From Acidimicrobiia bacterium (GTDB lineage: Bacteria; Actinomycetota; Acidimicrobiia; IMCC26256; PALSA-610), in contig JBBQGQ010000005.1 of assembly GCA_038323195.1 (NCBI GenBank), positions 99,217 through 163,216 of the forward strand: DNA of 64,000 bases. The letters run 5' to 3'. A model generated the notes under the pieces. That model made no database searches and had not been told where the DNA came from. It saw only the letters and a program-made list of their open reading frames with translations. Of the stretch, positions 5,790-61,137 are shown in pieces; the first letter of the stretch is position 1; every line of letters starts with the position of its first letter. The position numbers and the translations under genes were made by a program.

Positions 5790-5825
5790 CCTACGCAGCC
5801 ACTAGTGCCTACGCAGCCACTAGTG
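5790..5825. repeat. perfect 18-bp tandem duplication (CCTACGCAGCCACTAGTG x2) spanning a stop codon
   Basis: Copies at 5790-5807 and 5808-5825 are identical. The second copy contains the last codon and TAG stop of the 5820..6554 gene (minus strand). Confidence 0.95.
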
Positions 5826-6554
5826 AAGGTGCGACGCGAACCAGTCGAGGGCCCGCCGCCACGCGTCGGCCGCGTCGTCGGCGCGGTAGTCGGAACGCCG
5901 ATCGCAATGGAACCCGTGACCGGCGTCGGCGTAGCGCACGATATCCGTGTCGACCTTGGCGTCGCGTAGCGCGACGCGGAGCTGTTCGACGTCGTCGACG
6001 GGAATCGATGCGTCCTGGTCGCCGAACAGACCGAGCCACGGCGCCTGCAGTGAGGACGTCTCTTCGACGAGCGGCGGGAACTGTGGGAATCGGCCGGTCA
6101 CGATGCCGCCCCCGTAGAAACCGACGGCCGCGCCGAGGGGCCGGCGCAGGGCGACCAGGAACGACACGCGCCCGCCGAAGCAGAAGCCGACGATGCCGAT
6201 CCGGCTGTCGGCGTGGCCGGCGGCGTGCAGATGGGCGAGGGCGGCGTCGACGTCGGCGAGGACGGCGTCGTCGTTCGCCACGTCCCTGAAGTACTCCATC
6301 ACCTTCTCGAAGTCGCCGTACTCGACGACCGAGCCCGGACCCGAACGGTGGAAGAGGTCGGGCGCGACCGCGTGGTAGCCCGCCGCCGCGGCGCGACGGG
6401 TCACGTCTTCGATGTGGGGATTCACGCCGAAGGCTTCCTGAATGACGACGATCGCGCCCCGGTCGTCACCCGGCGGCCTCGCTTCGTACAACCGCATGGG
6501 ACCGTCGGCCGTCTCGACCGTGACGTCGTTGCCGGAAATATTGGCGTCGCTCAT
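5820..6554 (-). CDS. dienelactone hydrolase family protein (carboxymethylenebutenolidase-like)
   Basis: 244-aa ORF with a nucleophile elbow GFCFGG and a C-terminal HGF motif. Typical DLH length. Confidence 0.85.
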   Translation of the reverse strand: MSDANISGNDVTVETADGPMRLYEARPPGDDRGAIVVIQEAFGVNPHIEDVTRRAAAAGYHAVAPDLFHRSGPGSVVEYGDFEKVMEYFRDVANDDAVLADVDAALAHLHAAGHADSRIGIVGFCFGGRVSFLVALRRPLGAAVGFYGGGIVTGRFPQFPPLVEETSSLQAPWLGLFGDQDASIPVDDVEQLRVALRDAKVDTDIVRYADAGHGFHCDRRSDYRADDAADAWRRALDWFASHLH

Positions 6555-6659
6555 CTCCGGGAACCTAATGGGGTTCGACCGTCTTGCTCGGATGTTCGGG
6601 GGAGAATGGTTCCGAGCCGCCGGCGGGTCAGCACTCGTGGCACCCGAATTGTTGGAGTT

Positions 6660-8040
6660 CTACGTCTAGATCGTGCGCCTATCGGTCGGTGAGGTTGACC
6701 TTGGATGGCTGCTGGGATGACGTGCTTCGAGCACTGAACCATTAGGACGCTGCTGGTCGCCTCGGGCTCAAGGATCCGACGACGAGGAGGTGCTGGTGAG
6801 GAAAGTGTTCGTTGGTCATGACTGGGCTGAAGTCCATCACGATGTGCATGTCGAGGGCGAGACCGGTCAACGTCTCGCCGCAAGGCGATTGCCGGAGGGC
6901 ATCGAAGGGGTGCGCCGGTTCCACGAGCTGGTCGCGACGTATGTGGATGAACCCGCGGATGTGACGGTCGCGACCGAGACCGACCGCGGGCTGTTCGTCG
7001 GCGCGCTGGTCGCGTCGGGTTATCGGGTATTGGCGGTGAACCCGATGTCGACGTCGCGTTATCGGGAACGGCACTCGAGTTCGGGTGCGAAATCTGATCC
7101 GGGTGACGCGAAAGTGTTGGCCGAGCTTGCCCGCCTCGATGGCCACAACCATCGACCGATCGCGGGTGACAGCGATCTCGCGGACGCGGTCAAGGTGCTC
7201 GCCCGTGCACATCACGCGATGATCTGGAGTCGGCAACGTCAAACCAACCAGCTTCGCTCGACCCTGCGCGAATTCTTCCCCGCCGCCCTTGGGGCATTTG
7301 ACGATCTCGCTTCTGGTGACGCACTCGCAGTGCTCGCAATCGCGCCGACACCAACCCAAGGCCGAGCACTGTCGCGATCGAAGATCGCATCCGCATTGCG
7401 GCGCGGGGGACGCCAACGACGTATCGAGGAACGCACGATCGAGATCCAGACCGCGCTGCGGTCTGAGCAACTCGAGGCCCCACCCGTCGTCGCCCAGGCG
7501 ATGGGCGCATCGGTCGCTGCGCTGGTCGCGGTGATCGCCGAGCTCGTCACCCAGACCGGCCGACTCGAAACCGGCCTGGCCGACCGTTTTGAACAGCACC
7601 CGGACGCCAAGATCATCCGTTCCCTGCCAGGACTGGGGATGATCCTCGGCGCCCGGGCGCTCGGCGAGTTCGGGGATGACCCGAACCGCTACCTGAACGC
7701 CAAGTCTCGCAAGAACTACGCCGGCACGTCACCCATCACCAGAGCCTCCGGCAAACAACGCGTCGTGCTCGCCCGCTACGCCCGCAACCGCCACCTCGCC
7801 GACACCTGCCGAATGTGGGCCTTCGCCACCATCACCAACAGCCCCGGAGCCAGAGCCTTCTACGACGAACGCCGCGCCAACGGCGACACCCACAACCGCG
7901 CACTCCGAGCACTCGCGAACCGGCTCGTCGGCATCCTCCACGGCTGCCTAGCCAACAACACCCTCTACGACGAACACATCGCCTGGGGACACAGAATCAC
8001 CCTCGCCGCTTGACACCCACGAACCCTGGGATGTCTAGAC
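6660..8040 (+). mobile_element. IS110-family insertion sequence (boundaries approximate)
   Basis: A single transposase ORF flanked by non-coding sequence, lying between a hydrolase gene and a regulator gene. GTCTAGA occurs at 6664-6670 and 8033-8039, and CTGGGATG at 6711-6718 and 8025-8032. No terminal inverted repeats seen, as is usual for IS110. Confidence 0.6.
6790..8013 (+). CDS. IS110 family transposase
   Basis: 407 aa. N-terminal DEDD-type domain (VFVGHDWAEVHHDV...ATETDRGL...) and C-terminal Transposase_20-type helix-hairpin-helix (IRSLPGLGMILGARALGEFGDDPNRY). Start may be the GTG at 6796. Confidence 0.9.
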   Translation: MLVRKVFVGHDWAEVHHDVHVEGETGQRLAARRLPEGIEGVRRFHELVATYVDEPADVTVATETDRGLFVGALVASGYRVLAVNPMSTSRYRERHSSSGAKSDPGDAKVLAELARLDGHNHRPIAGDSDLADAVKVLARAHHAMIWSRQRQTNQLRSTLREFFPAALGAFDDLASGDALAVLAIAPTPTQGRALSRSKIASALRRGGRQRRIEERTIEIQTALRSEQLEAPPVVAQAMGASVAALVAVIAELVTQTGRLETGLADRFEQHPDAKIIRSLPGLGMILGARALGEFGDDPNRYLNAKSRKNYAGTSPITRASGKQRVVLARYARNRHLADTCRMWAFATITNSPGARAFYDERRANGDTHNRALRALANRLVGILHGCLANNTLYDEHIAWGHRITLAA

Positions 8041-8393
8041 GGTCACCGTCCGCGGCCCGGAATAAGGCATCTGCCCGATGTGCGGACAGGCCTCTTAGGT
8101 CGATCCTCGACCTGTACCAACAGGCAGAGAGGGCGTCATGTTCGACAACCCCGAGATCATGCGACAACTCGTAGACGCTCGACTCGAGCAGCGCCGTCGC
8201 CAAGCGGCGGTCGGTCGGGTCGCGGGCCGGGCCCGGCGCCGGCGCCGGCACCTTCATTGGCTGCGGGTGCCACCCGCGACCTGGTTCGGCCGGCGGCGCG
8301 TGCCCGGTGCTTCGAAGCCCGCAACCGCGTAACGGTGAGCACGCGTCCGAATCCGGCCGCGGCGCGCTCGGAGGCTGGACCAAACTGAACGCC

Positions 8394-11381
8394 GTGCCCA
8401 CCCGCGTCTCGAGCTCCCGGTTCGTCGGACGCCGGGCCGAGCTGACTCGGCTCGAAGCGAGCTGGAAGGCAGCGGTCGTCGACGAGCGTGCGGCGACCGT
8501 GCTCCTGTCCGGCGAGGCGGGCGTCGGCAAGTCGCGGCTCGTGGCCGAGCTCGTCGCTCGTATTCCGGAGCCGTCGCTGGTGTTGTTCGGTCAATGCTTC
8601 GACCTCGTCGATCGCGCGATGCCATTCGGGCCGATCGTGCAGGTGATGCGCACGTTGCATCGCACGCTCGACGAGGCGACGCTCGAATCGGTCATCGGGC
8701 CGGGACGCGACGAGCTCGCGGTTCTGCTGCCCGCGCTCCACACGCCGGCGCGCGAGGGCATCGTCTCCGGCGCGCTGTTCGAGCAGCTGCTCGGCGCGTT
8801 CGAGCGGTTGGCCGAGCGCGTTCCCACCTTGCTGGTGCTCGAGGATCTGCACTGGGCCGATCGGTCGACACGCGAGCTGTTTGCGTATCTCGCTCGAAGT
8901 CTGCGCACGGCGTCGATGGTGCTGTTGGGAACGTATCGTTCCGACGATCTCCACCGGCGACATCCTTTGCGGGGTGTGCTGGCAGAGCTCGACCGCTCGG
9001 GCGCGGTCGAGCGGATCGAGCTTGCTCGCTTCGATCGTGACGAGGTGCGCGAGCTCATCTCGGCGATCGTCGGGAGCGAGCCGTCGACCGAGCTGGTCGA
9101 GCGGACGTATCGCCGCTCCGACGGCAACGCCTTCTTCGCCGAGGAGCTTCTCGCCGTCGACGCCACATACCACGCCACGTACCACGCGTCCATGCCATCG
9201 ACGTTGCGGGAGATCGTGCTCGCGCGCGTCGACGGGCTCTCCGAACCGGCGCAAAACGTGCTCCGTTGCGCGGCGGTCATCGGGCGTTCCGCCGATCACC
9301 GGCTCCTGGAGGCCGCGGCCGGCATTCCTCGCGAGGATCTGCTCGCCGGTCTGCGCGACGCGGTCGAGCACCAGATTCTCGTCACCGACGTCGACGGCCT
9401 GGAATACCGGTTTCGACACGCGCTCGTGCGCGAGGCCGTCGAGGACGACCTGTTACCCGGCGATCGCGTTGCATTGCACTCGCGCGTCGCGGAGGTGCTC
9501 GCCGAGCAACCGGTCTGGTTCGACGGGGGCGCGGCGCAGCTCCTGGCCGAGCTGGCCTGCCACTGGGACAGCGCACGCGATGCGCCGCGCGCGCTCGTCG
9601 CCGCGCTCGACGCCGCGCGCGCCGCCGAGCAGATCTATGCGTACGGCGATGCCCTCGACCACGCCGAACAGGTCCTCGCGTTGTGGGCGCAGGTTCCCGA
9701 CGCCGAGGATCGCACCGGCATGCGCCACGTCGACATGATGCGCTACGCGGCGACGCAGGCGGAGATGTCCGGGAGCACCGACCGAGCCCTCGACTACACC
9801 CGCTCGGCCATCGCTGAGATCGATCCCGTCGACGATCCGATCGTTGCCGGCCTGTTGCACGAGCGCTTCGGCCGGTACCTCTGGATGCTCGCGCGATCCT
9901 GGTCGGACATTCTCGAACATTGCCGCGAAGCCGTACGTCTCGTGCCGGTCGAGCCCAGCGCGGCGCGGGCGAAGGTGCTCGCCACCCTCGGCCAACAGTT
10001 GATGCTCGCGGGCCGCGACGACGAGGCCATGTCCGTCTGTGAGCAGGCGATCGCGGTGGCACAGGCGGTCGGTGAGCCGGTCATCGAGGGTCATGCGCAC
10101 AACTCCCTCGGAACGATCCTCGCCGGCATCGGGCGGTTGGACGAGGGACTCGCCGAGCTGCACCGCGCGCGAGCGCTCGCGCTCGAGACCGAGTCGTGGG
10201 CCGACGTCGCCCGCGCCGCGGTCAACGAGGGCGGCGCGCTCCAGACAACGGCCCGTGACGAGGAGGCGTTGGCGATCTCACTCGAAGGCGCCGAGATCGC
10301 GCGTGCCCACGGGCTCGACCGCGCCTTCGGCGCGTTCCTGCGGTTGAACGCAGTCGAGGCTCTTCGTGCGCTCGGCCGGTGGGACGAGGCCGACGAGCAA
10401 CTGCAGGAAGTCGAGAGTGTCGATCCGCTCGGCATCGACGCCTGGCGCCTCGCCGAGCACCGATGCCTGTTGGCGGTGGGGCGCGCGCAGTTCGAGACCG
10501 CGCGCGCCGAGGCGGCGCGGATGGAGCAGTTGGTCGGCCATGCGGGCGCAGTGCGCGACCACCTCGCGATCGAGCACGCGCACATTGCGATCGCGGGATG
10601 GAGCGGCGACGAGGCCGGGGCGTTCGAGCAGGCGCTCGCGGCCCTGCGCGAGCCGGTCGAGGATCTCCGGTTGTGCTCCGACGTCAGCGTCGAGGTCATC
10701 GTCGAAGGGCTCGCGGCCGGGGCGTCGGTCGCGGCGCGCACGCGGGAGCCCGAAGCTCGCGCCGAGTACCTGGAGCGCGTGCGCGAGCTGGGCGGCCAGC
10801 TCGACGACGGGGTAGCCGCCGATCGGTGGGGCGGCGGTCACCCCGGAGCCCTGGACGCGCTCCGCTGCCACATTGCCGCGGAGACCGCGCGCGCCGCTCG
10901 GAGTGACGACGGGCCGAGCTGGCTCGCGGTCGCCGAGATGTGGTCGGGCTACGCCATGCTCCCGCGTGAAGCGTACGCGCGCTTCCGCGCGACCGAGGCG
11001 TTCGTGCGCGACGACGACCGCGACGCCGCGGCGTCGAGCGCTCGTGATGCGTACGCGCTTGCCGCCGACATCGGCTGGATCTGTGTACGCGACGCGGTCG
11101 CAAGCCTGGCGCGCCGGGCGCGCCTTGATCTGGGCGCGGTCGCCAGTGCGGTGGCCTCGCCCGCGGATCGGTACGGTCTCACGGCCCGCGAGCTCGACGT
11201 CGTCGCGCTCGTGGCCGAGGGTCGCACGAATCGCCAGATCGCCGACGCGCTCTTCATCTCGGCCAAGACGGCGAGTGTGCACGTGTCGAACATCTTGGCC
11301 AAGCTCGGGGTGACCAATCGGGGCGAGGCGGCCGCCGCCGCCCGGCGTCTGGGTCTCGACCTCGGTGCCGCGGGCGCGTAG
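8394..11381 (+). CDS. large ATP-binding LuxR-family (LAL/MalT-like) transcriptional regulator
   Basis: P-loop GEAGVGKS near the N-terminus, a long helical/TPR-like middle and a C-terminal LuxR HTH (LTARELDVVALVAEGRTNRQIADALFISAKTASVHVSNILAKLGV). Start is uncertain (GTG 8307 or GTG 8394). Confidence 0.85.
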   Translation: MPTRVSSSRFVGRRAELTRLEASWKAAVVDERAATVLLSGEAGVGKSRLVAELVARIPEPSLVLFGQCFDLVDRAMPFGPIVQVMRTLHRTLDEATLESVIGPGRDELAVLLPALHTPAREGIVSGALFEQLLGAFERLAERVPTLLVLEDLHWADRSTRELFAYLARSLRTASMVLLGTYRSDDLHRRHPLRGVLAELDRSGAVERIELARFDRDEVRELISAIVGSEPSTELVERTYRRSDGNAFFAEELLAVDATYHATYHASMPSTLREIVLARVDGLSEPAQNVLRCAAVIGRSADHRLLEAAAGIPREDLLAGLRDAVEHQILVTDVDGLEYRFRHALVREAVEDDLLPGDRVALHSRVAEVLAEQPVWFDGGAAQLLAELACHWDSARDAPRALVAALDAARAAEQIYAYGDALDHAEQVLALWAQVPDAEDRTGMRHVDMMRYAATQAEMSGSTDRALDYTRSAIAEIDPVDDPIVAGLLHERFGRYLWMLARSWSDILEHCREAVRLVPVEPSAARAKVLATLGQQLMLAGRDDEAMSVCEQAIAVAQAVGEPVIEGHAHNSLGTILAGIGRLDEGLAELHRARALALETESWADVARAAVNEGGALQTTARDEEALAISLEGAEIARAHGLDRAFGAFLRLNAVEALRALGRWDEADEQLQEVESVDPLGIDAWRLAEHRCLLAVGRAQFETARAEAARMEQLVGHAGAVRDHLAIEHAHIAIAGWSGDEAGAFEQALAALREPVEDLRLCSDVSVEVIVEGLAAGASVAARTREPEARAEYLERVRELGGQLDDGVAADRWGGGHPGALDALRCHIAAETARAARSDDGPSWLAVAEMWSGYAMLPREAYARFRATEAFVRDDDRDAAASSARDAYALAADIGWICVRDAVASLARRARLDLGAVASAVASPADRYGLTARELDVVALVAEGRTNRQIADALFISAKTASVHVSNILAKLGVTNRGEAAAAARRLGLDLGAAGA

Positions 11382-13326: not shown

Positions 13327-13600
13327 CGACCACTTCTTCTAGCAGGTCCCGTCTTCTAGCAGGCTGCGTCCGGGCCGTTCGATGATCCGTCGATCATCCC
13401 GTAGTCGAGCGTTCGCCGTCCTTCAGGATCCGTTCCACCGTCTCCCCGGTAAGTGGGTCTCGTACGAGGCGAGCGAGACGGCCGGCGGGTGGTGTTCCGA
13501 CTCACGCCCGGTTCTTTCACCGAAGCCGCCGGATGGATGCACGACGTCGGCGCGCGTGGGATCGGCGACTCGACAAGTTGGCGCGCCGGGTGACGTGAAA

Positions 13601-13649
13601 CCGCTGACGAGACCCCGCTGACGAGACCCCGCTGACGAGACCCCGCTGA
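13601..13649. repeat. 14-bp tandem repeat CCGCTGACGAGACC x3.5
   Basis: Three perfect copies (13601-13614, 13615-13628, 13629-13642) plus a 7-nt partial copy, in the divergent intergenic region upstream of the ferredoxin gene. Confidence 0.95.
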
Positions 13650-13713
13650 GGCCCGAAGCCCGGTGACGCGCGTGCGCTACGGTGCCGCCCGTCAGTGTGA
13701 ACGGGAGGAACCC

Positions 13714-15952: not shown

Positions 15953-16028
15953 CCGCGCTCGGCCCGCGGCCGGCGCGCAGTGCGCGCCAGCCGCGCTCGG
16001 CCCGCGGCCGGCGCGCAGTGCGCGCCAG
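15953..16028. repeat. perfect 38-bp tandem duplication containing a GC-rich palindrome
   Basis: CCGCGCTCGGCCCGCGGCCGGCGCGCAGTGCGCGCCAG occurs at 15953-15990 and again at 15991-16028. Each copy carries the inverted repeat GGCGCGCA-G-TGCGCGCC. Confidence 0.95.
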
Positions 16029-16037
16029 ACTCGGCGT

Positions 16038-16319
16038 ATGCAGCTCGACGATTTCCAACAGTTGATGGCCGACACGTTCGGCGCGCGTGATCGGGCCCGC
16101 GGCATCGACGCGACGATTGCCTGGCTCGCCGAAGAGCTGGGCGAGCTGGCGCGAGCCGTACGCAAGGGCACGCGCGACGAGCAGCTCCACGAGGTCGGCG
16201 ACGTCCTCGCCTGGTTGGCTTCCCTGACCGATCAGCTCGGCCTGTCGCTCGACGCCGCGGCGGCTCGCTACGAGTCGGGCTGCCCGCACTGTCACGCCCT
16301 GCCGTGCTCGTGCCCGTGA
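16038..16319 (+). CDS. MazG-like nucleotide pyrophosphohydrolase domain protein
   Basis: ATG at 16038. The 93-aa protein carries EELGELARAV...EVGDVLAWLASL helices (MazG EExxE/D type) and a Cys/His-rich tail GCPHCHALPCSCP. Confidence 0.8.
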   Translation: MQLDDFQQLMADTFGARDRARGIDATIAWLAEELGELARAVRKGTRDEQLHEVGDVLAWLASLTDQLGLSLDAAAARYESGCPHCHALPCSCP

Positions 16320-16327
16320 CCCGTGAC
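16314..16327. repeat. 7-bp tandem duplication CCGTGAC x2 spanning a stop codon
   Basis: Copies at 16314-16320 and 16321-16327. The first contains the TGA of the MazG-like gene. Confidence 0.8.
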
Positions 16328-16439
16328 CTGCGGTAGAGCGCGATAGCGCGCGACGCGCGCGATCCGCTCGACGCCGGTCGCCACGAATCCGGACGGTACC
16401 CTCGCTCGGAGCTCGTGCGCACGCCTCCGGGAGGAACGG

Positions 16440-20008: not shown

Positions 20009-20908
20009 GTGAGCGAGTCCGCGACCCTTCCTTGGCGCCGGCGCGCCGCGCGCGACACGCGCGGCTTCGTGTCGCCCGCGGTGCGGAATCTCGGGCGCGA
20101 GCTCGGCGTCGATCCGGCTTCACTACTGGGCCGAGGGACGGGAGCCCGTGTCACACTCGCCGACGTGCGGGTTGCCGGAATGGGAGCCGATCGTGCTTCT
20201 GCCGCTGGCACTTCTGCCGCGGGCGAGACCGGGTGCGACGAGGTCGTGCCGTTCGACAACGTCCGGCGCCGGACTGCTGTCGGGCTGCTTGCGTCGAAGC
20301 GCACGATCCCGCACGCGCTGGAGGTCGTCGCGGCCGACTACGGGGCGATCGACGGAGCGCGCGCCGTCGCGGGGCTCACCGCGTTGCCGTTCGTGGCGCG
20401 GGCAGTGGTCGACGCGCTCCGCGAATTCCCGCTGATGAACGCGACGGTGGCCGAGGACGGGTTGTCGCTCGTGACGCACCGCGCCGTGCACCTCGGGATC
20501 GCGGTCGACCTCGACTTCCACGGGCTCGTGGTACCGGTCGTGCACGGTGCCGACGGCCTGCGCTTGCGCGCCCTCGCCGCGGCCATCCGCGAGGTCGCCG
20601 GGCGCGCTCGCGCCCGGAAGCTGGTCCCCGACGACCTTGCGGGCGGAACGTTCACGATCACCAACCCGGGTGCGTCGGGCACGTGGATCTCGTTCCCGGT
20701 GATCAATCGACCTCAGGTCGGGATCCTCGCAACCGACGGCGTCTCCAAGCAGGTGGTCGCCGGCGACGACAGCCGGCTCGGCATCGCGTCGGTCGGTCGT
20801 CTCTGCTGCGCGTTCGACCATCGTGCGCTCGACGGCGCGTACGCGGGCGCGTTCCTCCGGCGCGTCCGGCACATCATCGAGCACCGCGACTGGCTCAGGG
20901 AGCTTTGA
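20009..20908 (+). CDS. 2-oxoacid dehydrogenase E2 acyltransferase lacking a lipoyl domain
   Basis: 299 aa. It begins directly with a peripheral-subunit-binding motif (VSPAVRNLGRELGVDPASLLGRGTGARVTLADV), followed by the catalytic domain with DHRALDG. There is no room upstream for a lipoyl domain. Confidence 0.8.
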   Translation: MSESATLPWRRRAARDTRGFVSPAVRNLGRELGVDPASLLGRGTGARVTLADVRVAGMGADRASAAGTSAAGETGCDEVVPFDNVRRRTAVGLLASKRTIPHALEVVAADYGAIDGARAVAGLTALPFVARAVVDALREFPLMNATVAEDGLSLVTHRAVHLGIAVDLDFHGLVVPVVHGADGLRLRALAAAIREVAGRARARKLVPDDLAGGTFTITNPGASGTWISFPVINRPQVGILATDGVSKQVVAGDDSRLGIASVGRLCCAFDHRALDGAYAGAFLRRVRHIIEHRDWLREL

Positions 20909-22043: not shown

Positions 22044-22080
22044 GACCCGGAGCATAGGATCTCCGTCGTCCATCCGGCCT

Positions 22081-22106
22081 GCCCGAGCGGTAGGCCCGAG
22101 CGGTAG
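22081..22106. repeat. perfect 13-bp tandem duplication GCCCGAGCGGTAG x2
   Basis: Copies at 22081-22093 and 22094-22106, in the divergent region between the PLC-like gene and the ferredoxin gene. Confidence 0.95.
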
Positions 22107-45161: not shown

Positions 45162-45196
45162 CAAGGGCGTAACAAAGTGGCCCTAGCGTCGGCTCC

Positions 45197-49078: not shown

Positions 49079-49094
49079 GGGATGAGTCGGGCGG

Positions 49095-49568
49095 TTAGTC
49101 GGGGAGCCGTACCGCGACGACGGTCACCGACATCTCGCGTTTCGGACCTTGGTACGTGACGGTGGCCTCGGGTCCTTTGCCGATGATGGCCTGCCCGAGG
49201 GGTGAGTTGGTCGACAGCACGTCGTACTTCTCGTGGCGTTCCTCGATGGAGCCGACGAGATACGTGACGAGGTCGTCGTCGCCGGCGTAGCGCAGGTCGA
49301 CGAGTGTGCCCGGCTCCACCACGTCGCCGGCGGTGTTGGTGTCGATCACGACCGCGTTCTTCAGCATCTGCTCGAGCTGGCGGACCCGGGCCTCGTTGTG
49401 GCCCTGCTCGTTCTTCGCGGCGTCGTAGTCGGCGTTCTCGGAGATGTCGCCGTGCTCTCGGGCTCTTTCGATCCAAAGCGAGAGCTCGCGACGGCGCGTC
49501 GTCGTCCGTTCTTCCAATTCCGCCTTCAGGCGTGCGTGGGCCTGCGGCGAGAGGTGGGGCTCGCTCAT
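49095..49568 (-). CDS. greA: transcription elongation factor GreA
   Basis: 157 aa with a coiled-coil N-terminal region (DISENADYDAAKNEQ) and the GreA C-terminal domain. Confidence 0.95.
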   Translation of the reverse strand: MSEPHLSPQAHARLKAELEERTTTRRRELSLWIERAREHGDISENADYDAAKNEQGHNEARVRQLEQMLKNAVVIDTNTAGDVVEPGTLVDLRYAGDDDLVTYLVGSIEERHEKYDVLSTNSPLGQAIIGKGPEATVTYQGPKREMSVTVVAVRLPD

Positions 49569-50851: not shown

Positions 50852-51766
50852 ATGCCCATCACCCCGACCGACAAGATCTGGATGAACGGCGAGCTCGTTC
50901 CGTGGGCGGACGCGCGGATCCACGTCCTCACGCACACGTTGCACTACGGCACCGGAGTCTTCGAGGGCATCCGCGCGTACGAGACGGAACGGGGCCCGGC
51001 GGTCTTCCGCCTCACCGAGCACATCACGCGGTTGTTCGACTCCGCGCGGATCATGATGATGGAGATCCCGTACACCGTCGACCAGCTCGTACAGGCGACG
51101 AAGGACACCGTGCGCGCGACCGGACTCGCGTCGTGCTACGTCCGGCCGATCGCGTACTACGGGTACGGCGAGATGGGCCTCAACACGTTGCCGTGTGAGG
51201 TGGACGTCTCGATCGCGTGTTGGCCGTGGGGCGCGTACCTCGGTGCGGACGCCGTCTCCAAGGGCGTGCGCATGAAGATCTCGAGCTGGACGCGCCACGA
51301 CCACAACACGATGCCGCCCCTGTCGAAGACGACCGGCAACTACGTCAACTCGTCGCTCGCGAAGGTCGAAGCGCTCAAAGCGGGATACGACGAGGCGATC
51401 ATGCTCAATCCGGATGGCCTCGTCTCCGAGTGCACCGGTGAGAACATCTTCGCCGCGCGTCGCGGTGTGCTGGTCACGCCGCCGGTCTCCGCCGGCGCGC
51501 TGCCGGGCATCACCCAGGATTCGGTGACGACGATTGCCCGCGACCACGGCTTCGAGGTCCGCGTCGACGACTTGTCGCGCAGCGATCTCTACGTCGCCGA
51601 AGAGATGTTCGTGTGCGGCACTGCGGCCGAGGTCAGCGCCGTGAACTCCGTCGACGACCGCGCCATCCCGTGCCCCGGTCCGATGACCCAAGTCATCGCC
51701 GCCGAGTACGCCAAAGCCGTCCGCGGCGAGATCGACAAATACAAAGACTGGTGCGAATTGGTATGA
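50852..51766 (+). CDS. ilvE: branched-chain amino acid aminotransferase (class IV)
   Basis: 304 aa. HTLHYGTGVFEGIRAY and the rest of the fold-type IV pattern. Confidence 0.95.
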   Translation: MPITPTDKIWMNGELVPWADARIHVLTHTLHYGTGVFEGIRAYETERGPAVFRLTEHITRLFDSARIMMMEIPYTVDQLVQATKDTVRATGLASCYVRPIAYYGYGEMGLNTLPCEVDVSIACWPWGAYLGADAVSKGVRMKISSWTRHDHNTMPPLSKTTGNYVNSSLAKVEALKAGYDEAIMLNPDGLVSECTGENIFAARRGVLVTPPVSAGALPGITQDSVTTIARDHGFEVRVDDLSRSDLYVAEEMFVCGTAAEVSAVNSVDDRAIPCPGPMTQVIAAEYAKAVRGEIDKYKDWCELV

Positions 51767-53481
51767 GTGAGTCTGGAAGTGGCGGAGTCCCGAGCGCCCG
51801 CGAGGTGGGTATCCCGCCGAGCAGCGAGGGCGACAAAGCAAGCATCGTGGGTATCCCGCCGAGCAGCGAGGGCGACAAAGCAAGTATCGAAATTTACGAC
51901 ACGACGTTGCGGGATGGCTCGCAGCTCGAGGGGATCTCGCTGACCGTCGAGGACAAGCTGCGGATCGCGGAGCAACTCGACTGGCTCGGTGTGCACTACA
52001 TCGAAGCCGGTTGGCCGGGCGCGAACCCGAAGGACGACGAGCTGTTCCGGCGCGTGCCGAACGAGCTGAGGCTCGAGACCAGCACCCTCGTCGCGTTCGG
52101 GTCGACGCGTCGAGTCAAGGGCAAGGTCGACAGCGACGACACACTCCGCCACCTCGTCGAGGCGAATGTCGGGACCGTCTGCATCGTGGGCAAGTCTTGG
52201 GACTACCACGTCACCGAGGCACTGGGCACGACGCTCGACGAGGGTGTGGCGATGGTCGGCGATTCGGTCGAATTCCTGCGCGGCGCCGGGATGCAGGTGC
52301 TCTTCGACGCCGAGCACTTCTTCGACGGCTTCAAGCGCAATCCCGAGTTCTCGCTGCGCGTGCTCGAAGCCGCGGCGACGAACGGCGCGAGCCATCTCGT
52401 GCTCTGCGACACCAACGGCGGAGCGCTGCCACGCGAGGTCGAGCAGGCCGTGGCAGATGTCGTGCGTTACTTCGGTGCCGACGTCAAGATCGCGGTGCAT
52501 CTCCACGACGATGCCGGCACTGGAGTTGCGAACGCGCTCGCGGGGGTACTCGGGGGCGCCACACAGGTCCAGGGCACGATCAACGGTTACGGCGAGCGCA
52601 CGGGCAACTGCAATCTCACCACGATCATCCCGAATCTCACGCTCAAGATGGGCTACGAGACCATCCCGCTCGATCGCTTCGAGCGGCTCACTCCGGTTGC
52701 GCACCACATCGCCGAGCTTGTGAACATGCCCCTCAACCCGCAGGCCGCGTACGTGGGCCATTCCGCGTTCGCGCACAAGGCCGGGTTGCACACGAGCGCG
52801 ATCGCGAAGCGTCCCGACGCCTACGAGCACGTATCGCCCGAGGTCGTCGGGAACGGGACGCGGTTCGTGGTATCGGAGCTCGCGGGCAAGTCGACGCTCG
52901 GGCTCAAGGCCAAGGAGCTCGGCCTCGAGCTCGACGGACCGCAGCTGGCCGACGTGGTCGAGACGTTGAAGCGGCTCGAGCACGAGGGCTACCACTTCGA
53001 GGTTGCCGACGGCTCGTTGGAGTTGCTCATGCGCCGGGCAACGGGTTGGGAGCCCGGCTGGTTCCGAGTCGAGTCGTTCCGCGTGATCACCGACGACCTC
53101 GGCGGCGTCGACACCCTTACCGACAAGACCGGCGCGACCGTGATGACCGAAGCAACCGTCAAGGTCCACATTGGTGGTAGGCGAGTGGTGGCGACCGCCG
53201 AGGGCAACGGTCCGGTGAACGCGCTCGACACCGCGCTGCGAACCGCACTCGACGGCAATTTCCCCGCGCTCGAGCGAGTGCACCTGACCGACTACAAGGT
53301 GCGGGTGCTCGACACGAACAAGGGCACGGGCGCGGCGACTCGGGTGCTGATCGACTCCACCGACGGCAACGGCACGTGGACGACCATCGGCGTGAACGAG
53401 AACATCATCGAAGCCTCGTGGCAGGCGCTGCTCGACTCGATTCATTTCGGCCTGCTGCGCGCCGAGCTCGCCGGCGGCTGA
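51763..53481 (+). CDS. cimA: citramalate synthase-like LeuA paralogue
   Basis: ATG at 51763 in an ATGA overlap with the ilvE stop; alternative GTG starts lie at 51805 and 51847. IYDTTLRDGSQ, HLHDDAGTGVANALAGV and a C-terminal LeuA_dimer-type domain. From memory the layout resembles the TIGR00977 citramalate synthase class; the substrate is not proven. Confidence 0.8.
   Translation: MSESGSGGVPSAREVGIPPSSEGDKASIVGIPPSSEGDKASIEIYDTTLRDGSQLEGISLTVEDKLRIAEQLDWLGVHYIEAGWPGANPKDDELFRRVPNELRLETSTLVAFGSTRRVKGKVDSDDTLRHLVEANVGTVCIVGKSWDYHVTEALGTTLDEGVAMVGDSVEFLRGAGMQVLFDAEHFFDGFKRNPEFSLRVLEAAATNGASHLVLCDTNGGALPREVEQAVADVVRYFGADVKIAVHLHDDAGTGVANALAGVLGGATQVQGTINGYGERTGNCNLTTIIPNLTLKMGYETIPLDRFERLTPVAHHIAELVNMPLNPQAAYVGHSAFAHKAGLHTSAIAKRPDAYEHVSPEVVGNGTRFVVSELAGKSTLGLKAKELGLELDGPQLADVVETLKRLEHEGYHFEVADGSLELLMRRATGWEPGWFRVESFRVITDDLGGVDTLTDKTGATVMTEATVKVHIGGRRVVATAEGNGPVNALDTALRTALDGNFPALERVHLTDYKVRVLDTNKGTGAATRVLIDSTDGNGTWTTIGVNENIIEASWQALLDSIHFGLLRAELAGG
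51805..51888. repeat. 42-bp in-frame tandem duplication (41/42) in the 5' end of the cimA-like gene
   Basis: Copies at 51805-51846 and 51847-51888, each beginning with GTG. They encode VGIPPSSEGDKASI twice, directly before the conserved IYDTTLRDG core. Confidence 0.95.
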
Positions 53482-53493
53482 GGAGCGCCGGCC

Positions 53494-53523
53494 GGCGCGG
53501 GTCGGCGCGGGTCGGCGCGGGTC
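53494..53523. repeat. 10-bp tandem repeat GGCGCGGGTC x3
   Basis: Three perfect copies starting 13 nt after the cimA-like stop. Confidence 0.9.
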
Positions 53524-53554
53524 GGCCCGGCCGGGTCGAAATGCGATCCGAGTA

Positions 53555-55292: not shown

Positions 55293-56636
55293 GTGAACGC
55301 GGTGACCGGCTACGCGAAGAACGGTGGCACGCACATCGCGTATTCGGTTCTCGGTGACGGTCCGGTCGACGTCCTCGCGGTGCAGTCGATGACTGTCGCG
55401 ACAGAAGCGTTCGCGGAGGAGCCGCATGCAGCCGCGTTCGATCGGCGGCTTGCATCGTTCTGCCGTCTCATTCGCTTCGATCTACGCGGGATCGGGCTTT
55501 CGGATCCAATCGATCTCGCCGTGGGTATGAAGCTCTCCGATATCGCCGGCGACGCGCTGGCCGTGCTCGACGCCGTCGGAGTTCCGAGCGCGACACTTCT
55601 CGGCACCGAGGGAGGGGTCGTCGCGGCGATCACGCTGGCCGCGACCGCGCCGGATCGGATCGACCGGCTGGTCCTCATCAACGGCTTTGCCCGGGTCATC
55701 AGGTCCGACGACTATCCCCACGGCCATGCACCGGAGGTCGTCTCGGCGTTCGTCGAGACCAACATCGATCCCGACGCCGAATGGTCCCTCGACGGCGCGG
55801 ACGATCTCGCGTTGATCGCACCGTCGCTCAAGGACGATCCGGCGTTCGTCGCCTGGTGGGTGCGATCGTCGCGCCGGGGTGCGAGCCCCGCGACCGCGCT
55901 CGCGATGTTGCGATTGACCAGCCAGTCCGACGTGCGCGACCTGCTTCCGACGATCAGCGTGCCGACGCTCGTTCTTCACCGCCGCGCCAACTTCTTTGCT
56001 CCTGTCGGTTGCGGGCGATACCTGGGTGAGCACATCGCGGGCGCCAAGTACGTCGAGCTGGCCGGCGCCGATCACCTTCCGTGGGCGGGTGACGCCGATG
56101 CGATCCTCGACGAGATCGAGGAGTTCCTGACCGGGCAGCGTGGCGGAACGGGCGAGCGCGTGCTCGCGACCGTGCTGTTCACCGACATCGTGGACTCGAC
56201 CCAACAGGCCGCCGCGCTCGGCGACCGGGCGTGGCGCGCCCGGCTCGAGAATCACGACGCGATCGTGCGCCAGGAATTGCGGCGCTACGGCGGTCGCGAG
56301 GTCAACACCACCGGAGACGGATTCTTCGCGGCGTTCGACAGCCCGACGCAGGCGGTGCGCTCCGCGCGCGCGATCATCGACGCTTCGGCCGCAGCCCAAC
56401 TCGATGTGCGTGCGGGAATACACACGGGTGAGTGCGAGCGGCGCGGCGATGATCTCGCGGGGCTCGCCGTCCACATCGCGGCGCGGGTGGCGGCGGCGGC
56501 GGGTGCGGGCGACGTGGTCGTGTCGCGGACGGTGCGCGACCTCGTCGGCGGCTCGGAGATGCGATTCGTGGATCGCGGCGAGCACGAGCTGAGGGGCGTG
56601 CCCGAACATTGGCAGCTGTACGCGCTGGAACGGTGA
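55293..56636 (+). CDS. alpha/beta-hydrolase domain fused to class III adenylate/guanylate cyclase domain
   Basis: GTG start 1 nt after the previous stop. The N-terminal ~270 aa has an alpha/beta-hydrolase layout. The C-terminal part (VLFTDIVDSTQ...NTTGDGFFAAF...GIHTGECE) is a class III cyclase. The architecture resembles mycobacterial LipJ (Rv1900c). Confidence 0.85.
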   Translation: MNAVTGYAKNGGTHIAYSVLGDGPVDVLAVQSMTVATEAFAEEPHAAAFDRRLASFCRLIRFDLRGIGLSDPIDLAVGMKLSDIAGDALAVLDAVGVPSATLLGTEGGVVAAITLAATAPDRIDRLVLINGFARVIRSDDYPHGHAPEVVSAFVETNIDPDAEWSLDGADDLALIAPSLKDDPAFVAWWVRSSRRGASPATALAMLRLTSQSDVRDLLPTISVPTLVLHRRANFFAPVGCGRYLGEHIAGAKYVELAGADHLPWAGDADAILDEIEEFLTGQRGGTGERVLATVLFTDIVDSTQQAAALGDRAWRARLENHDAIVRQELRRYGGREVNTTGDGFFAAFDSPTQAVRSARAIIDASAAAQLDVRAGIHTGECERRGDDLAGLAVHIAARVAAAAGAGDVVVSRTVRDLVGGSEMRFVDRGEHELRGVPEHWQLYALER

Positions 56637-56673: not shown

Positions 56674-58089
56674 ATGAGCCAGGTCCGCCTCCGTTTCTCG
56701 CCCGCTCCCACCGGGTCGCTCCACCTCGGCAACGTCCGCACGGCGCTCTACAACTGGTTGCACGCGCGCCACGTCGGCGGCACCTTCATCCTCCGGATCG
56801 AAGACACCGATGTCGTCCGCTCGACGCAGGAGTCGGTCGACGAGATCCAGTACGTGCTGCGCTGGTTGGGTCTCGACTGGGACGAGGGCTCCTACCTGCA
56901 GAGCGCGCGTTTGGACGTGTACCTCGCGGCGGCCGCCCGCCTGGTCGACGAGGGGCTCGCTTACGAGTGCTACTGCACCGAGTCCGAGGTCAAGGAGCGC
57001 AACGAGCAGGCGATGCACCAGGGTCGGCCGCCCGGCTACGACGGGCGCTGTCGAGATCTGAGCGCCGACGAGCGGGCCGCGCGCGCGGCCGAGGGTCGAC
57101 CCGTGTCGCTCCGGTTCCGCACACCCGACGAGGGCCACAGCTCCTTCACGGATCTGATCCGCGGCGAGGTCACCGTCGAGTGGTCGACGATCTCCGACTT
57201 CGTGATCGTGAGGTCGAACGGCACGCCGGTGTTCTTCCTCGCGAACGCGGTCGACGACATCGACATGCAGATCACGCACGTACTACGCGGCGAGGATCTC
57301 ATCGACTCGACCCACCGCGTTCTCGCGCTCCGGCGTGCGCTCGGTCACGACGATCAGCCCGTATACGCGCACATGCCGATGATCCTCGGACCCGGCGGCG
57401 GGAAGCTGTCGAAGCGCCACGGGTCGGTCTCGATCGAGGAATACCGCGACGCCGGTTACCTTCCGAGCGCACTGGTCAACTATCTCACCTTGCTCGGTTG
57501 GGGCCCGGAGGACGGCCGCGAGGTTCTGAGCACCGACGAGCTCGTCGCCGAGTTCGAGCTGAAGCGCGTCATCAGCTCTTCCGCAACGTTCGACGCCAAG
57601 AAGCTCGAGTGGATGAACGGCGAGCACATCCGGGCTCTTCCTCCGTCGGAGCTGGTGTCGGCCGTGTTGCCGTTCGCCCGCATCCGGTACGGCGACCGTC
57701 TCGAAATCCGGCGGTTCGAGGCGGCGGTTCGCCTGGCGCAGGTGCGGGCGACGACCCTCGTACAGATTGCCGAGCAGATGGCGTTCCTCTTCACCCCCGA
57801 CGACGCGCTCGAGATCGAGGCGGCGTCGTGGGAGAAGCTGACAAAGGTGGAGGCGGCGGCCGACATCCTCGATGCCGCCGCCGAATTCGTTGCAACATGC
57901 GACTGGACCGACGAGATCGATCCGCGTCCGGCCATCGAGGCGCTCGGGCTCAAGCCGGGCAAGGTCATGCACGTCCTGTACACCGCGATCGAGGGTCGCA
58001 GTCAAGGGCTGCCGCTGTTCGACTCGATCAGTCTGCTCGGCCGCGAGTCGGCGCTCCACCGGCTACGTGCTGCCCGCGCCCGCCTGTGA
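56674..58089 (+). CDS. gltX: glutamate--tRNA ligase
   Basis: 471 aa. RFSPAPTGSLHLGN (HIGH-type) and KLSKRHG (KMSKS-type) motifs. Confidence 0.95.
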   Translation: MSQVRLRFSPAPTGSLHLGNVRTALYNWLHARHVGGTFILRIEDTDVVRSTQESVDEIQYVLRWLGLDWDEGSYLQSARLDVYLAAAARLVDEGLAYECYCTESEVKERNEQAMHQGRPPGYDGRCRDLSADERAARAAEGRPVSLRFRTPDEGHSSFTDLIRGEVTVEWSTISDFVIVRSNGTPVFFLANAVDDIDMQITHVLRGEDLIDSTHRVLALRRALGHDDQPVYAHMPMILGPGGGKLSKRHGSVSIEEYRDAGYLPSALVNYLTLLGWGPEDGREVLSTDELVAEFELKRVISSSATFDAKKLEWMNGEHIRALPPSELVSAVLPFARIRYGDRLEIRRFEAAVRLAQVRATTLVQIAEQMAFLFTPDDALEIEAASWEKLTKVEAAADILDAAAEFVATCDWTDEIDPRPAIEALGLKPGKVMHVLYTAIEGRSQGLPLFDSISLLGRESALHRLRAARARL

Positions 58090-58820
58090 GACGGTGGATC
58101 AAGATCTCGCTGCGCATCGCGATCGGTCTGTTCGTCGTCGTCTTCGCGTATCTGTCGGTCGTGTTCGTACAGGTGTGGTTGGCTGCGCGCCGAGATGACG
58201 CCCGACCGTCCGACGCGATCATCGTCCTCGGAGCCGCGGAGTTCGACGGCCGGGCGTCGGCGATTCTCGCGGCCCGGCTCGACCATGCGATCGACCTGTA
58301 CCGCCGCGGCATCGCCCCGGTCGTCGTGGTGACGGGCGGCAGACAACCCGGAGATCGCTTCACCGAGGCGAGCGTCGGTGCGAGCTACCTGAACGATCGT
58401 CACGTCCCCGAGCGCGCGATCTTGCGCGAGACGACCGGGCGTTCGTCGTGGCAGTCGCTCGCCGCGGCGGCCCGCTTCTTGAAGGCGCGCAACCTCACAC
58501 GAGTCGTGCTCGTCTCGGATCCGTACCATTCGGCGCGCATCGAGGACGTTGCGCACGACGTCGGTCTGAAAGCCGTGACATCGCCCACCCGCACGAGTCC
58601 GATCAAGGGGACAAGTGAGTGGCGGCGATTCGTCACCGAAACGATCCGCGTCGGCGCGGGACGGATCTTCGGTTACGGACGCCTCGACCGGCACCGCCAG
58701 GTGGAGAGGCTCGTTCCCGGACTCGCTACAATATGCCCTTCGTTGCGGCGGCCGGATCGGCGATTCGGTCGACGGCGATGCGGTCGACGTCGCAACGGCA
58801 CCCATTCGGGGGTGGTGTAA
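58086..58820 (+). CDS. DUF218/YdcF (SanA/ElyC-like) membrane-anchored protein
   Basis: GTG in a GTGA overlap with the gltX stop. N-terminal TM helix, then AIIVLGAAEFDG...VVVTGG...VLVSDPYHSARI. The last ~45 codons are Arg-rich and the stop lies 15 nt inside tRNA-Gln, so the 3' part may be fortuitous. Confidence 0.75.
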   Translation: MRRWIKISLRIAIGLFVVVFAYLSVVFVQVWLAARRDDARPSDAIIVLGAAEFDGRASAILAARLDHAIDLYRRGIAPVVVVTGGRQPGDRFTEASVGASYLNDRHVPERAILRETTGRSSWQSLAAAARFLKARNLTRVVLVSDPYHSARIEDVAHDVGLKAVTSPTRTSPIKGTSEWRRFVTETIRVGAGRIFGYGRLDRHRQVERLVPGLATICPSLRRPDRRFGRRRCGRRRNGTHSGVV

Positions 58821-58877
58821 TCGGCAACACGACAGGTTCTGGCCCTGTTATTGGGGGTTCGAGTCCTCCCCCCCGAG
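58806..58877 (+). tRNA. tRNA-Gln (anticodon CTG)
   Basis: Hand-folded cloverleaf: acceptor TCGGGGG/CCCCCGA, D stem GTGT/ACAC, anticodon stem ACAGG/CCTGT with loop TTCTGGC, T stem GGGGG/CCTCC with loop TTCGAGT. No encoded CCA. Confidence 0.9.
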
Positions 58878-58892
58878 CGCAGCCGGAGACTT

Positions 58893-59916: not shown

Positions 59917-60270
59917 GTGGTGACCGTGCCTCCGGCTAAAAAGGCAACGAAGAGAAGGGCTGCCAAGAAGGCTCCGGCCAAGCGCAAGGCCGTGAAGAAG
60001 GCGCCCGCGAAGCGGAAAGCAGCTAAGAAGCGGACCGCGAAGAGAAAAGCACCGGCCAAGCGCAAGGCGGCGAAGAAGACCGTCAAGCGCAAGGCGGCGA
60101 AGAAGACCGTCAAGCGCAAGGCGGCCAAGAAGCGCAAGGCTCCGGCCAAGCGCAAGGCAGCCAAGAAGCGTAAGGCTCCGGCGAAGAAGCGTCGCAAAGC
60201 CGCGAAGAAGGCGCCGGCCAAGCGTGCCGTGCGTCGCACAACGCGCAAGCGCACAACGAAGAAGAAATAG
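59917..60270 (+). CDS. Lys/Ala/Arg-rich histone-H1-like basic protein (PAKRKAAKK repeats)
   Basis: GTG preceded by AGGAAAGG. 117 aa, almost entirely K/A/R/P/T repeats, like the C-terminal tails of mycobacterial HupB or Streptomyces HupS. The DNA has internal 27-36-bp repeats. Confidence 0.75.
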   Translation: MVTVPPAKKATKRRAAKKAPAKRKAVKKAPAKRKAAKKRTAKRKAPAKRKAAKKTVKRKAAKKTVKRKAAKKRKAPAKRKAAKKRKAPAKKRRKAAKKAPAKRAVRRTTRKRTTKKK

Positions 60271-60287
60271 CTTCGCTTCCGAAGTCT

Positions 60288-60322
60288 CGAAGAAGGGCCC
60301 GGGCAACCGGGTCCTTTCTTCG
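60288..60322. terminator. hairpin between convergent genes (possible bidirectional terminator, no U-tract)
   Basis: CGAAGAAGGGCCCGG-GCAA-CCGGGTCCTTTCTTCG forms a stem of about 15 bp with one bulge. Confidence 0.5.
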
Positions 60323-60344
60323 CGTTAGGACCGCGAGCATTTTC

Positions 60345-61070
60345 TCAGAGGTTGTCGATGCGGGCGAACGACTCGGCCGCGCGCAGCCCGGCCCGGAGGG
60401 CAGCGGCGCGGGTCTCGGCGTGGACCTTCTCCGCGAACGCGGCGCGCTCCTCGTCGGGGCGCTCGTCGATCGCCATCGTGGAGCGCCACTGACTCCGATG
60501 CGCGAGCAACGCCTCGATCTTGCGATCGACGTAACCGTCGACGTTCTCGACGTGATCGACCCGGCCCGGCTCGAAGCAGAGCAAGGTCGACGGCCGGTGC
60601 GGTGCCACTCCTTGCTCGGGGAAGAAATGCGGGTCGCGCGCGGCGACGATCCCGGAAGTGACGAGCAACCCCGCGTGGTGATGGTCGGGATGGATCCGGT
60701 ACGGGTGCCACGGGTCGTGTCCGAGCACGACGTCGGGGCGAGCCTGACGGATCACGCGGCAGACGGCGGCGCGCGGTGCCAGCGTGCTGTCGAGCTCACC
60801 GTCGACGAAGCGCAGGAACACGACGTCGACGGCTCCGAGGATGGCGACGGCGTCGCGTTGCTCGTCTTCGCGCTTCGCGATGAGCGCCGCGAGGTCGGCG
60901 GCACCGTCCCAAGTGCCCTTGGAGCCGTCGGTGCAGACGCAGAGGGTCACCTGCGTGCCGGCGGCCGCCCACTTCGCGAGCGTCGCACCACAGCCGAACT
61001 CGATGTCGTCGGCGTGGGCACCGATTGCCAGCGCGCGCCGCGGGATCGGGAGGTTGACGGCGATCGTCAT
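60345..61070 (-). CDS. PIG-L family deacetylase (LmbE/MshB-like)
   Basis: 241 aa. AIGAHADDIEFGCGATLAKW and the downstream HPDHHH motif. Confidence 0.85.
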   Translation of the reverse strand: MTIAVNLPIPRRALAIGAHADDIEFGCGATLAKWAAAGTQVTLCVCTDGSKGTWDGAADLAALIAKREDEQRDAVAILGAVDVVFLRFVDGELDSTLAPRAAVCRVIRQARPDVVLGHDPWHPYRIHPDHHHAGLLVTSGIVAARDPHFFPEQGVAPHRPSTLLCFEPGRVDHVENVDGYVDRKIEALLAHRSQWRSTMAIDERPDEERAAFAEKVHAETRAAALRAGLRAAESFARIDNL

Positions 61071-61137
61071 GGCGCAGATGTCATGGCGCGGATGTCGTGG
61101 GCGCGGATGTCTTGGGCGCGATTGTCATGGCGCGGGC
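61066..61137. repeat. 14-15-bp tandem repeat x5 spanning a start codon and the upstream stop codon
   Basis: Plus-strand units are GTCATGGCGCAGAT, GTCATGGCGCGGAT, GTCGTGGGCGCGGAT, GTCTTGGGCGCGATT and GTCATGGCGCGGGC. On the minus strand units 1, 2 and 5 read ..GCGCC-ATGA-C. Confidence 0.9.

Follow-up and report, generated by a model that had tools for sequence, protein, structure and literature searches.

The window considered here is a 64-kb stretch of DNA, analysed over its whole length, from an uncultured high-GC actinobacterium of the class Acidimicrobiia (Actinomycetota). It has a G+C content of 69% and a coding density of ~93%, and it carries a series of short head-to-tail repeats, many of which include the stop or start codon of a flanking gene within the repeated unit. 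In all likelihood these repeats are genuine, recent and locus-specific short tandem duplications that resemble variable-number tandem repeat (VNTR) or minisatellite loci.

Gene map and comparison contigs

The gene table was built from GC3-biased open reading frames (ORFs) and corrected by the gene calls and Pfam labels of related contigs, with all starts and stops rechecked. An ARAGORN call of "tRNA-???" at 8967-9054 was discarded as a false positive, as it sits within coding sequence. Conspecific and sister-species contigs were found via three protein searches. The same-species contigs (~96-98% nucleotide identity) are L081-L086, L091, L172-L175 and L177-L179, and the sister-species contigs (85-91% nucleotide identity) are L087-L090, L176 and L001. 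L001 is the nearest species-level genome in the GTDB set, with a LeuA/CimA identity of 93% and a syntenic nucleotide identity of ~83%. A LeuA/CimA search of metagenome contigs yielded no conspecific contig (top match 81%) and was used for background only. The polarity of each event was established from site-by-site alignments and full lists of insertions and deletions (indels) between the window and these conspecific and sister contigs, which are metagenome consensus sequences in which rare alleles may be under-represented.

A first-pass annotation of the window had listed 16 sets of repeat coordinates, and Tandem Repeats Finder (TRF) and exact periodic runs place repeats at 16 of the 16. Six further arrays (16330, 20193, 26955, 39361, 39615 and 58758) were not in that list. 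Apart from the direct repeat at 45158-45179 (vide infra), the arrays are as follows, with coordinates, unit length and copy number, and lengths in nucleotides (nt) or bp.

5789-5825, 18 bp x 2.06, exact; the unit holds the last codon and TAG of the dienelactone hydrolase (DLH) gene (5820-6554, minus strand, stop 5820-5822), and the array precedes the start of the gene at 4827-5780
9160-9187, 12 bp x 2.3, in frame; within the AAA_16/GerE regulator gene (8307-11381, plus strand)
13601-13649, 14 bp x 3.5, exact; divergent intergenic region
15953-16028, 38 bp x 2.0, exact; starts 4 nt past the acyl-CoA dehydrogenase stop, with a GC-rich hairpin in the unit
16313-16328, 7 bp x 2.3; the unit ends in the TGA (16317-16319) of the MazG-like gene (16038-16319), whose product has a MazG domain confirmed by Pfam
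16330-16349, 10 bp x 2; intergenic
20193-20224, 15 bp x 2, in frame; within the 2-oxoacid dehydrogenase E2 gene (20009-20908)
22081-22106, 13 bp x 2.0, exact; divergent spacer, within a window-private 72-nt insertion (22078-22149)
26955-26981, 13 bp x 2.1; divergent spacer upstream of a PBP gene
30225-30268, a 21-nt copy plus 1-nt filler; the unit holds the stop and last codons of rnd (30249-31388, minus strand, stop 30249-30251)
32373-32545, 59 bp x 2.9; beginning at the ATG of the luciferase-like gene (31467-32375, minus strand, start codon 32373-32375), the unit reaches into the divergent promoter region
34866-34895, 13-nt repeat with a period of 17; over the stops of the convergent genes 34069-34872 (plus strand) and 34891-36213 (minus strand)
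37511-37528, 9 bp x 2.0, exact; 2 nt past an aminotransferase TAA
39361-39384, 24-bp in-frame insertion; the surrounding part of the ArfC-like gene (39164-39613, minus strand) has a 12-bp periodicity
39615-39646, 16 bp x 2, imperfect; directly 5' of the ArfC-like start codon
49047-49078, 16 bp x 2, one mismatch; the unit holds the TGA (49056-49058) of hyuB (47514-49058)
49083-49107, 12 bp x 2, imperfect; the second copy begins at the greA stop (49095-49097, minus strand)
51805-51888, 42 bp x 2, one mismatch; the unit begins at the probable GTG start of a leuA/cimA-like gene
53485-53530, 10 bp x 4.6; 4 nt past the leuA/cimA stop
58758-58789, 15 bp x 2.1, in frame; close to the C-terminal end of the DUF218 gene (58086-58820), with tRNA-Gln just 3' of it
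61066-61137, 14-15 bp x 5, degenerate; within the unit is the ATGA (plus-strand TCAT) that once joined the CofC stop and PIG-L start, now at 61125-61127 and 61068-61070 respectively, both on the minus strand

The first-pass assignments of repeats to gene ends hold for the DLH, MazG, rnd, hyuB, greA, luciferase-like and PIG-L/CofC genes. The repeat at 51805, previously grouped with the in-frame cases inside genes, is also a start-codon case. The repeat at 30225-30268 had been described as a 22 bp x 2 duplication, but consists of 21 templated nucleotides and one extra T, with the filler at 30246/30247.

Polarity and age of the extra copies

The first-pass annotation had considered the copies probably young and had proposed a comparison of orthologous junctions. 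In this comparison the events are polarised as derived insertions, and comprise window-private, species-level and copy-variable cases. At least 11 events are private to the window. These are the repeats at 9160 (12 bp; missing in conspecific L091 and sister L090), 13601 (three 14-bp units), 26955 (13 bp; missing in L083, L179 and L087), 30225 (22 bp), 37511 (9 bp; one copy in L081 and L082), 39361 (24 bp; missing in L081 and L082), 39615 (16 bp, which L081 and L082 also lack), 49047 and 49083, along with the second 42-bp copy of the 51805 duplication and one unit of the 53485 array. At 13601, L091 and L090 lack 42 nt, corresponding to the three units, and keep ~1.2 copies with a 3-nt TGA repeat. 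The events at 49047 and 49083 are adjacent and jointly form one strain-private 28-nt insertion (block at 49059; 16 + 12), which is missing in the conspecifics L172 and L173. The weaker repeat reported at the greA stop (49084) is real and strain-private, and adjoins 49047.

The second class consists of species-level events, which are present in conspecifics but not in sister species, and includes the arrays at 32373, 16330, 20193, 15953 and 58758. Those at 16330 and 20193 are common to the window and L091 and are not found in L090. The 15953 array has one copy in L090, which is 48 nt shorter, and a shorter, diverged second copy in L091. The 58758 array is common to L172, and L176 lacks 27 nt there. 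At the 5789 array the spacer in sister L090 is just 10 nt, or 29 nt shorter than in the window. The repeat at 34866 is common to the conspecifics, the sister species have a different spacer, and this repeat would represent an older or weaker case.

Copy number also varies between strains at several loci. The 16313 array has one copy in L090, two in the window and three in L091. The 32373 array has one copy in the sister contigs L087-89, ~2.3 in L082, 2.9 in the window, 3.0 in L081 and more than four in L179, and so behaves as a VNTR. The 53485 array is one unit (11 nt) shorter in L172 and L177 and shorter still in L176. Finally, the 30225 duplication is a presence/absence polymorphism. It is not found in seven conspecific contigs or in the sister contigs, but the last 33 nt of an independent Logan contig (L178, run ERR15948612; 98.4% identical to the window) end exactly within the 22-bp post-rnd duplication, with the same junction as in the window, including the odd extra base. 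Because L178 carries this junction, the allele must be polymorphic in nature, with the assembler having broken the contig at that point. As these alignments show, the extra copies are derived insertions, young and polymorphic.

Two side observations concern individual arrays. The 13601 array lies in a region (13327-13713) that is variable in gene content: sister L090 (7584-8922) has three extra genes there (ClpP, AHSA1 and HTH_5), of these genes a 123-nt remnant survives in the window and nothing in conspecific L091. At the 58758 array, the DUF218 ORF apparently extends 15 nt (58806-58820) into tRNA-Gln (58806-58878), and the same 244-amino-acid call is found in L172.

Density relative to shuffled and related sequence

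For counting, arrays were required to have a TRF score of at least 50, a period of at least 7, at least 1.9 copies and a match of at least 90%. With this filter the window contains 13 arrays, compared with 0.22 +/- 0.44 (maximum 2) in 100 dinucleotide-preserving shuffles; at a score of at least 70 it contains 8, compared with 0.02. High-identity tandem repeats are therefore ~60 times commoner in the window than in shuffled sequence. They are spread evenly, at 4-5 per 21 kb. The same filter detected 49 arrays in 80 related loci totalling 1.29 Mb (0.38 per 10 kb) and 56 arrays in 1.38 Mb of high-GC relatives. The density in the window, 2.0 per 10 kb, is about five times the 0.38-0.41 per 10 kb of the relatives (Poisson P = 4e-6). 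Over matched ranges, the window has 3-5 arrays and conspecific and sister contigs have 0-1, which puts the density in the window 3-5 times higher.

The excess is not mirrored in substitutions. With a sister outgroup, 440 substitutions fall on the branch of the window and 374 on that of the conspecific, a near-symmetric split, whereas private tandem insertions divide between the two branches as ~11 and 2, respectively (binomial P = 0.02). Among indels of at least 4 bp between the window and its conspecifics, the tandem type is in the majority. The strain lineage has about 4-5 times more such events than its closest relatives, which supports an elevated rate of duplication, or of retention of duplications, in this strain. 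The high rate of short tandem duplication that had been proposed for the lineage is supported by both the density and the branch counts.

Reading frames and placement at gene junctions

Selection for events that leave reading frames intact had also been proposed, and is well supported. The period is divisible by three in all 13 intragenic arrays, and the private events inside genes measure 12 and 24 bp. Conversely, every private event with a length indivisible by three, six in total, falls outside the interior of genes (random placement P = 2.6e-7). The same pattern is seen at lower density in the relatives, where the 1.38 Mb sample contains 28 intergenic, 10 boundary-spanning, 17 in-frame and only one out-of-frame array.

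The position of the arrays at gene ends was compared with a placement null. Arrays were collapsed to one copy, and for each unit length all placements not strictly inside a gene were counted. Permitted placements make up 7-12% of all positions, and, depending on unit length, 17-74% of these overlap a gene end. Eight of the 16 non-intragenic events span a start or stop codon, with 5.8 expected (P = 0.18). This count fits uniform placement combined with a filter against disruption, and targeting of start or stop codons is therefore not needed; the junction position is a by-product. The earlier suggestion that placement follows from selection in a compact genome is upheld, while the enrichment at gene termini that was to be tested does not appear as an excess within the window.

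The geometry of a tandem duplication accounts for this. As far as the point where copy 1 ends, and again from where copy 2 begins, the original sequence is unchanged. Because it is kept on both sides, a unit containing a stop or start codon leaves both flanking genes whole and merely lengthens the spacer between them, whereas a unit lying fully within a gene survives only if its length is a multiple of three. At a coding density of 93% and with short spacers, uniform mutation followed by such a filter places approximately a third to a half of the survivors at gene ends. Two repeats in related genomes have this form: the 89 bp x 3.1 array of L001 and the 57 bp x 2 array of L003 each begin with the stop codon of the upstream gene. 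A shared breakpoint motif was also considered, as several units start with CC or GCC, but was rejected, as there are too few unambiguous junctions and the phase was chosen post hoc.

Spacer growth and uncoupling of genes

The extra copies contribute ~460 nt of the ~4,460 nt of non-coding DNA, or ~10% of the spacers in the window. The duplicated items include stop codons, start codons, and promoter or terminator hairpins. The claim that formerly overlapping genes become uncoupled is supported at the CofC/PIG-L junction, where the genes overlap by 4 nt in sister L176 (which has 46 nt less sequence at the array), overlap by GTGA in L001, and are 54 nt apart in the window. Similarly, hyuB and greA are 8 nt apart in the conspecifics and 36 nt apart in the window. 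A third pair, ilvE and leuA(cimA), has an ATGA overlap in L176 and is separated by 80-122 nt in the window species, although this growth is mainly due to the gain of a ~57-nt element (vide infra) and not to tandem duplication alone. With 4-nt overlaps turned into spacers of 50-120 nt, translational coupling should change.

The 3' junction of leuA/cimA illustrates how such growth can recur. L001 has its own exact 89 bp x 3.1 repeat (L001:11571-11845), which starts with the last codons and TGA of the same gene, and the window has the 10-bp array at 53485; expansion at this junction has therefore recurred independently.

Exceptional loci

Three loci differ from the remaining arrays. The first is the ~57-nt element at 51783-51839 in the ilvE-leuA spacer, which is overlapped by the 51805 duplication. 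In five of five conspecific contigs the same junction carries one copy of the reverse complement (for example, L172:4645-4700). The core of the element is a CGGG-UAU-CCCG hairpin (CGGGTATCCCG plus flanks), which recurs in the 57 bp x 2 repeat of another genus (L003:13539-13653) and, more weakly, just 5' of the other leuA in the window (39922-39972). Copies of this kind are thus known from three loci and in both orientations. Neither an Rfam search of the window nor a permissive search of 51700-51950 assigned the element to a family. Its predicted fold does not improve on those of shuffles, the L003 unit being the exception. The element may be a small mobile or repetitive extragenic palindromic (REP)-like element, a copied leader or an invertible segment.

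The second locus, 45158-45179, is an 11-bp direct repeat (GTAACAAGGGC/GTAACAAAGTG). It had been considered a weak, imperfect and young duplication at the stop of the iclR-like gene. This does not hold, because the repeat is conserved across species: both copies are kept in L173, L176 and L001, even where the iclR stop has shifted. The gene just downstream of the repeat (45197-45697) encodes an OmpR-type winged-helix (Trans_reg_C) regulator, and the repeat is probably its operator, with 11-bp spacing.

The third is the strain-private 72-nt insertion at 22078-22149, in the spacer from which the PI-PLC and ferredoxin genes diverge. The whole insertion, which already carries the exact 13 bp x 2 repeat at 22081, is missing in L091 and L087. 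A source for this insertion was sought and not found.

Possible origin of the duplications

The five exact two-copy events extend 1, 0, 2, 0 and 0 nt beyond two full units. By chance, a mean excess of 0.86 would be expected, with P(0) = 0.51 and P(>=3) = 0.09. Microhomology is zero at the 15953 array, and 13601 is the only event with a 3-nt repeat in the ancestral state. Junctions that lack microhomology beyond chance, together with the 1-nt filler at 30225, hint at end-joining or fill-in over classical slippage.

In such a scheme the first extra copy would arise by a route independent of homology, either fill-in of a staggered break followed by end-joining, or a template switch. We advance this route tentatively, as a hypothesis rather less likely than not. 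Once two copies exist, slippage or unequal exchange would expand or contract the array. The high reversion rate of such duplications would explain why most of them are young. Many actinobacteria are capable of fill-in and end-joining with Ku/LigD; no Ku or LigD gene lies within the 64-kb window.

It is also conceivable, if rather unlikely, that the strain has undergone a burst of homology-independent short tandem duplication, or that 51783-51839 is a new junction-seeking small mobile element of Acidimicrobiia. A burst would imply a rate, relative to substitutions, several times that of the conspecifics, and would stem from a change in how breaks are repaired or flaps processed, such as Ku/LigD-type fill-in joining at very high activity or the impairment of a 5'-flap nuclease. 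In compact high-GC genomes, such episodes would rank among the chief sources of spacer DNA and of lost translational coupling between overlapping genes.

Relationship to known systems and alternative explanations

The nearest known counterparts are bacterial VNTRs and minisatellites, such as the VNTR loci of Mycobacterium tuberculosis that are not mycobacterial interspersed repetitive units (MIRUs), including its exact tandem repeat (ETR) loci. As in those loci, the units are head-to-tail, locus-specific and ~10-60 bp long, they lie mainly between genes or keep the frame within them, closely related strains differ in copy number, and the host is a high-GC actinobacterium. The window arrays have the two defining properties of VNTRs, contiguous head-to-tail copies and copy-number differences between close strains. 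They are unlike typical VNTRs in that most have two copies, many are confined to one strain, they occur at ~2 per 10 kb, and many units hold a start or stop codon.

Microhomology-mediated tandem duplications (MTDs) are a second point of comparison. These also measure tens of bp, occur genome-wide, are purged from essential sequence, readily revert and are mostly young, and they have 5-8 bp of identical sequence at both ends (PMC8639346). The exact two-copy events in the window differ in that their 0-2 nt of excess equals chance, and one event has a 1-nt filler. Duplications by staggered-break fill-in and end-joining would share the absence of junctional homology and the occasional untemplated nucleotide, but the lengths in the window are far more variable than those produced by any one enzyme, and no nuclease, transposase or Ku/LigD gene is linked to the events. 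A literature search for tandem duplications spanning a stop or start codon, or uncoupling prokaryotic genes that overlap, found nothing specific, and papers on MIRUs and MTDs were the nearest.

MIRUs themselves suggest an alternative, in which a dispersed, mobile minisatellite inserts at start or stop codons and is then amplified in tandem. Mycobacterial MIRUs, which are likewise actinobacterial, lie between operon genes, their ends overlap stop and start codons, and their tandem copies vary in number (PMC12548453, PMC3184786). The element at 51783-51839 partly fits this description, as it sits at a junction that overlaps (ATGA) in a sister species, is inverted in the conspecifics and has its core in L003. 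However, MIRUs form one dispersed homologous family of 40-100 bp units at ~40-50 loci and are thought to be mobile (PMC12548453, PMC3184786). The window units measure 7-59 bp and share no similarity. Each is a copy of local sequence that is single-copy in relatives, none of the 22 units tested has a related copy elsewhere in the 64-kb window, and only 51783-51839 shows dispersal. Boundary-spanning events, moreover, are not enriched over the neutral expectation, and insertion of a MIRU-like element is an improbable source of the arrays. On the overlap with codons the picture is mixed: eight of the 16 non-intragenic events have a stop or start codon in the unit, as in MIRUs, yet the length of the unit is mostly one that three does not divide (7, 14, 16, 22 and 59), and an ORF within the unit, coupled to the flanking genes, is not apparent.

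Direct repeats that selection maintains for a function, for instance as operator sites, iterons or phase-variable contingency repeats, are about equally improbable as a general explanation. The 45158-45179 repeat, conserved upstream of a regulator gene, is probably of this type, and the arrays at 13601, 22081, 26955 and 32373 lie in divergent promoter regions. Most arrays, however, are missing from conspecific or sister genomes and hence are not conserved, and their units carry coding fragments and stop codons, with no common motif.

Errors of assembly or polishing could be suspected, given that many events are private to a single assembly and that the short-read contigs of conspecifics are almost free of them. 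An artefact would arise without regard to reading frame, yet none of 11 private events disrupts one (P ~3e-7). In addition, the 30225 junction is present in the independent contig L178, several arrays are shared with or copy-variable among independent assemblies, and the genes of the window are intact, whereas some relatives known from long-read metagenome-assembled genomes have truncated homologues. An artefactual origin is accordingly very hard to credit.

Target-site duplications left behind after the excision of transposable elements are just as remote an explanation. A staggered cut followed by fill-in does yield tandem duplication without microhomology, and an IS110-family element is present in the window at 6565-8034. 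Against this, the units can be anything between 7 and 59 bp long, the copies have neither remnants of an element nor terminal inverted repeats between them, and arrays of more than two copies (up to five) and copy-number variation do not fit. IS110-family elements are not known to make long target-site duplications. The first-pass argument against target-site duplications of a single transposon family, from variable unit lengths and contiguous copies, therefore stands. A CRISPR array, also set aside at that stage, is rejected because the copies abut directly, with no unique spacers between them.

Several points weigh against reading the arrays as simple, recent tandem duplications at an elevated rate. 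The rate excess over conspecifics rests on ~13 events, counted against metagenome consensus contigs. In two places, at 22078 (72 nt) and at the ilvE-leuA element, the spacer has expanded by something other than simple tandem duplication, and 45158 is a conserved, functional-looking repeat. The mechanism has the status of a hypothesis, with few clean junctions and a single filler nucleotide that is anecdotal. Lastly, several strain-private copies are already imperfect, at up to 3 of 12-16 positions, which calls for rapid neutral divergence, error-prone copying or events of greater complexity. Error-prone synthesis was considered on the basis of these copies and not adopted, as neutral divergence of spacers could explain much of the mismatch.

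Taken as VNTR-like tandem duplication filtered by selection, the phenomenon is of a known kind that is unusually dense in one strain, and no new molecular system is implied. The loci in the window show mutation and selection jointly shaping the gene junctions of a compact genome, and would provide strain-typing markers for this uncultured Acidimicrobiia lineage. If the strain excess and the missing microhomology extend genome-wide, they would indicate an unusual repair background.

Other features of the window

The IS110-family insertion sequence at 6565-8034 contains the ORF 6790-8013 (plus strand; Pfam DEDD_Tnp_IS110 and Transposase_20), and is not found in sister L090. The sole non-tRNA Rfam match in the window, Ms_AS-4, is located inside the transposase gene of this element (7623-7704, minus strand). 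A gene encoding an alpha/beta-hydrolase and an adenylate/guanylate cyclase domain occupies 55293-56636; a stretch of 924-1348 nt is missing there in L172 and L176.

Two further coding regions contain in-frame repeats. The region encoding the LeuC N-terminus (44358-44393) is hypervariable: L176 is 60 nt longer owing to repeats of 10 to 20 bp, and in L001 the region is missing. Beside the HU gene, a small Lys/Ala-rich protein with no Pfam match (59917-60270) has in-frame repeats of 27, 30 and 36 bp, and its homologues have different and longer repeats, of 90 bp x 3.3 (L001:16430-16723) and 66 bp x 4.7 (L004:16062-16370).

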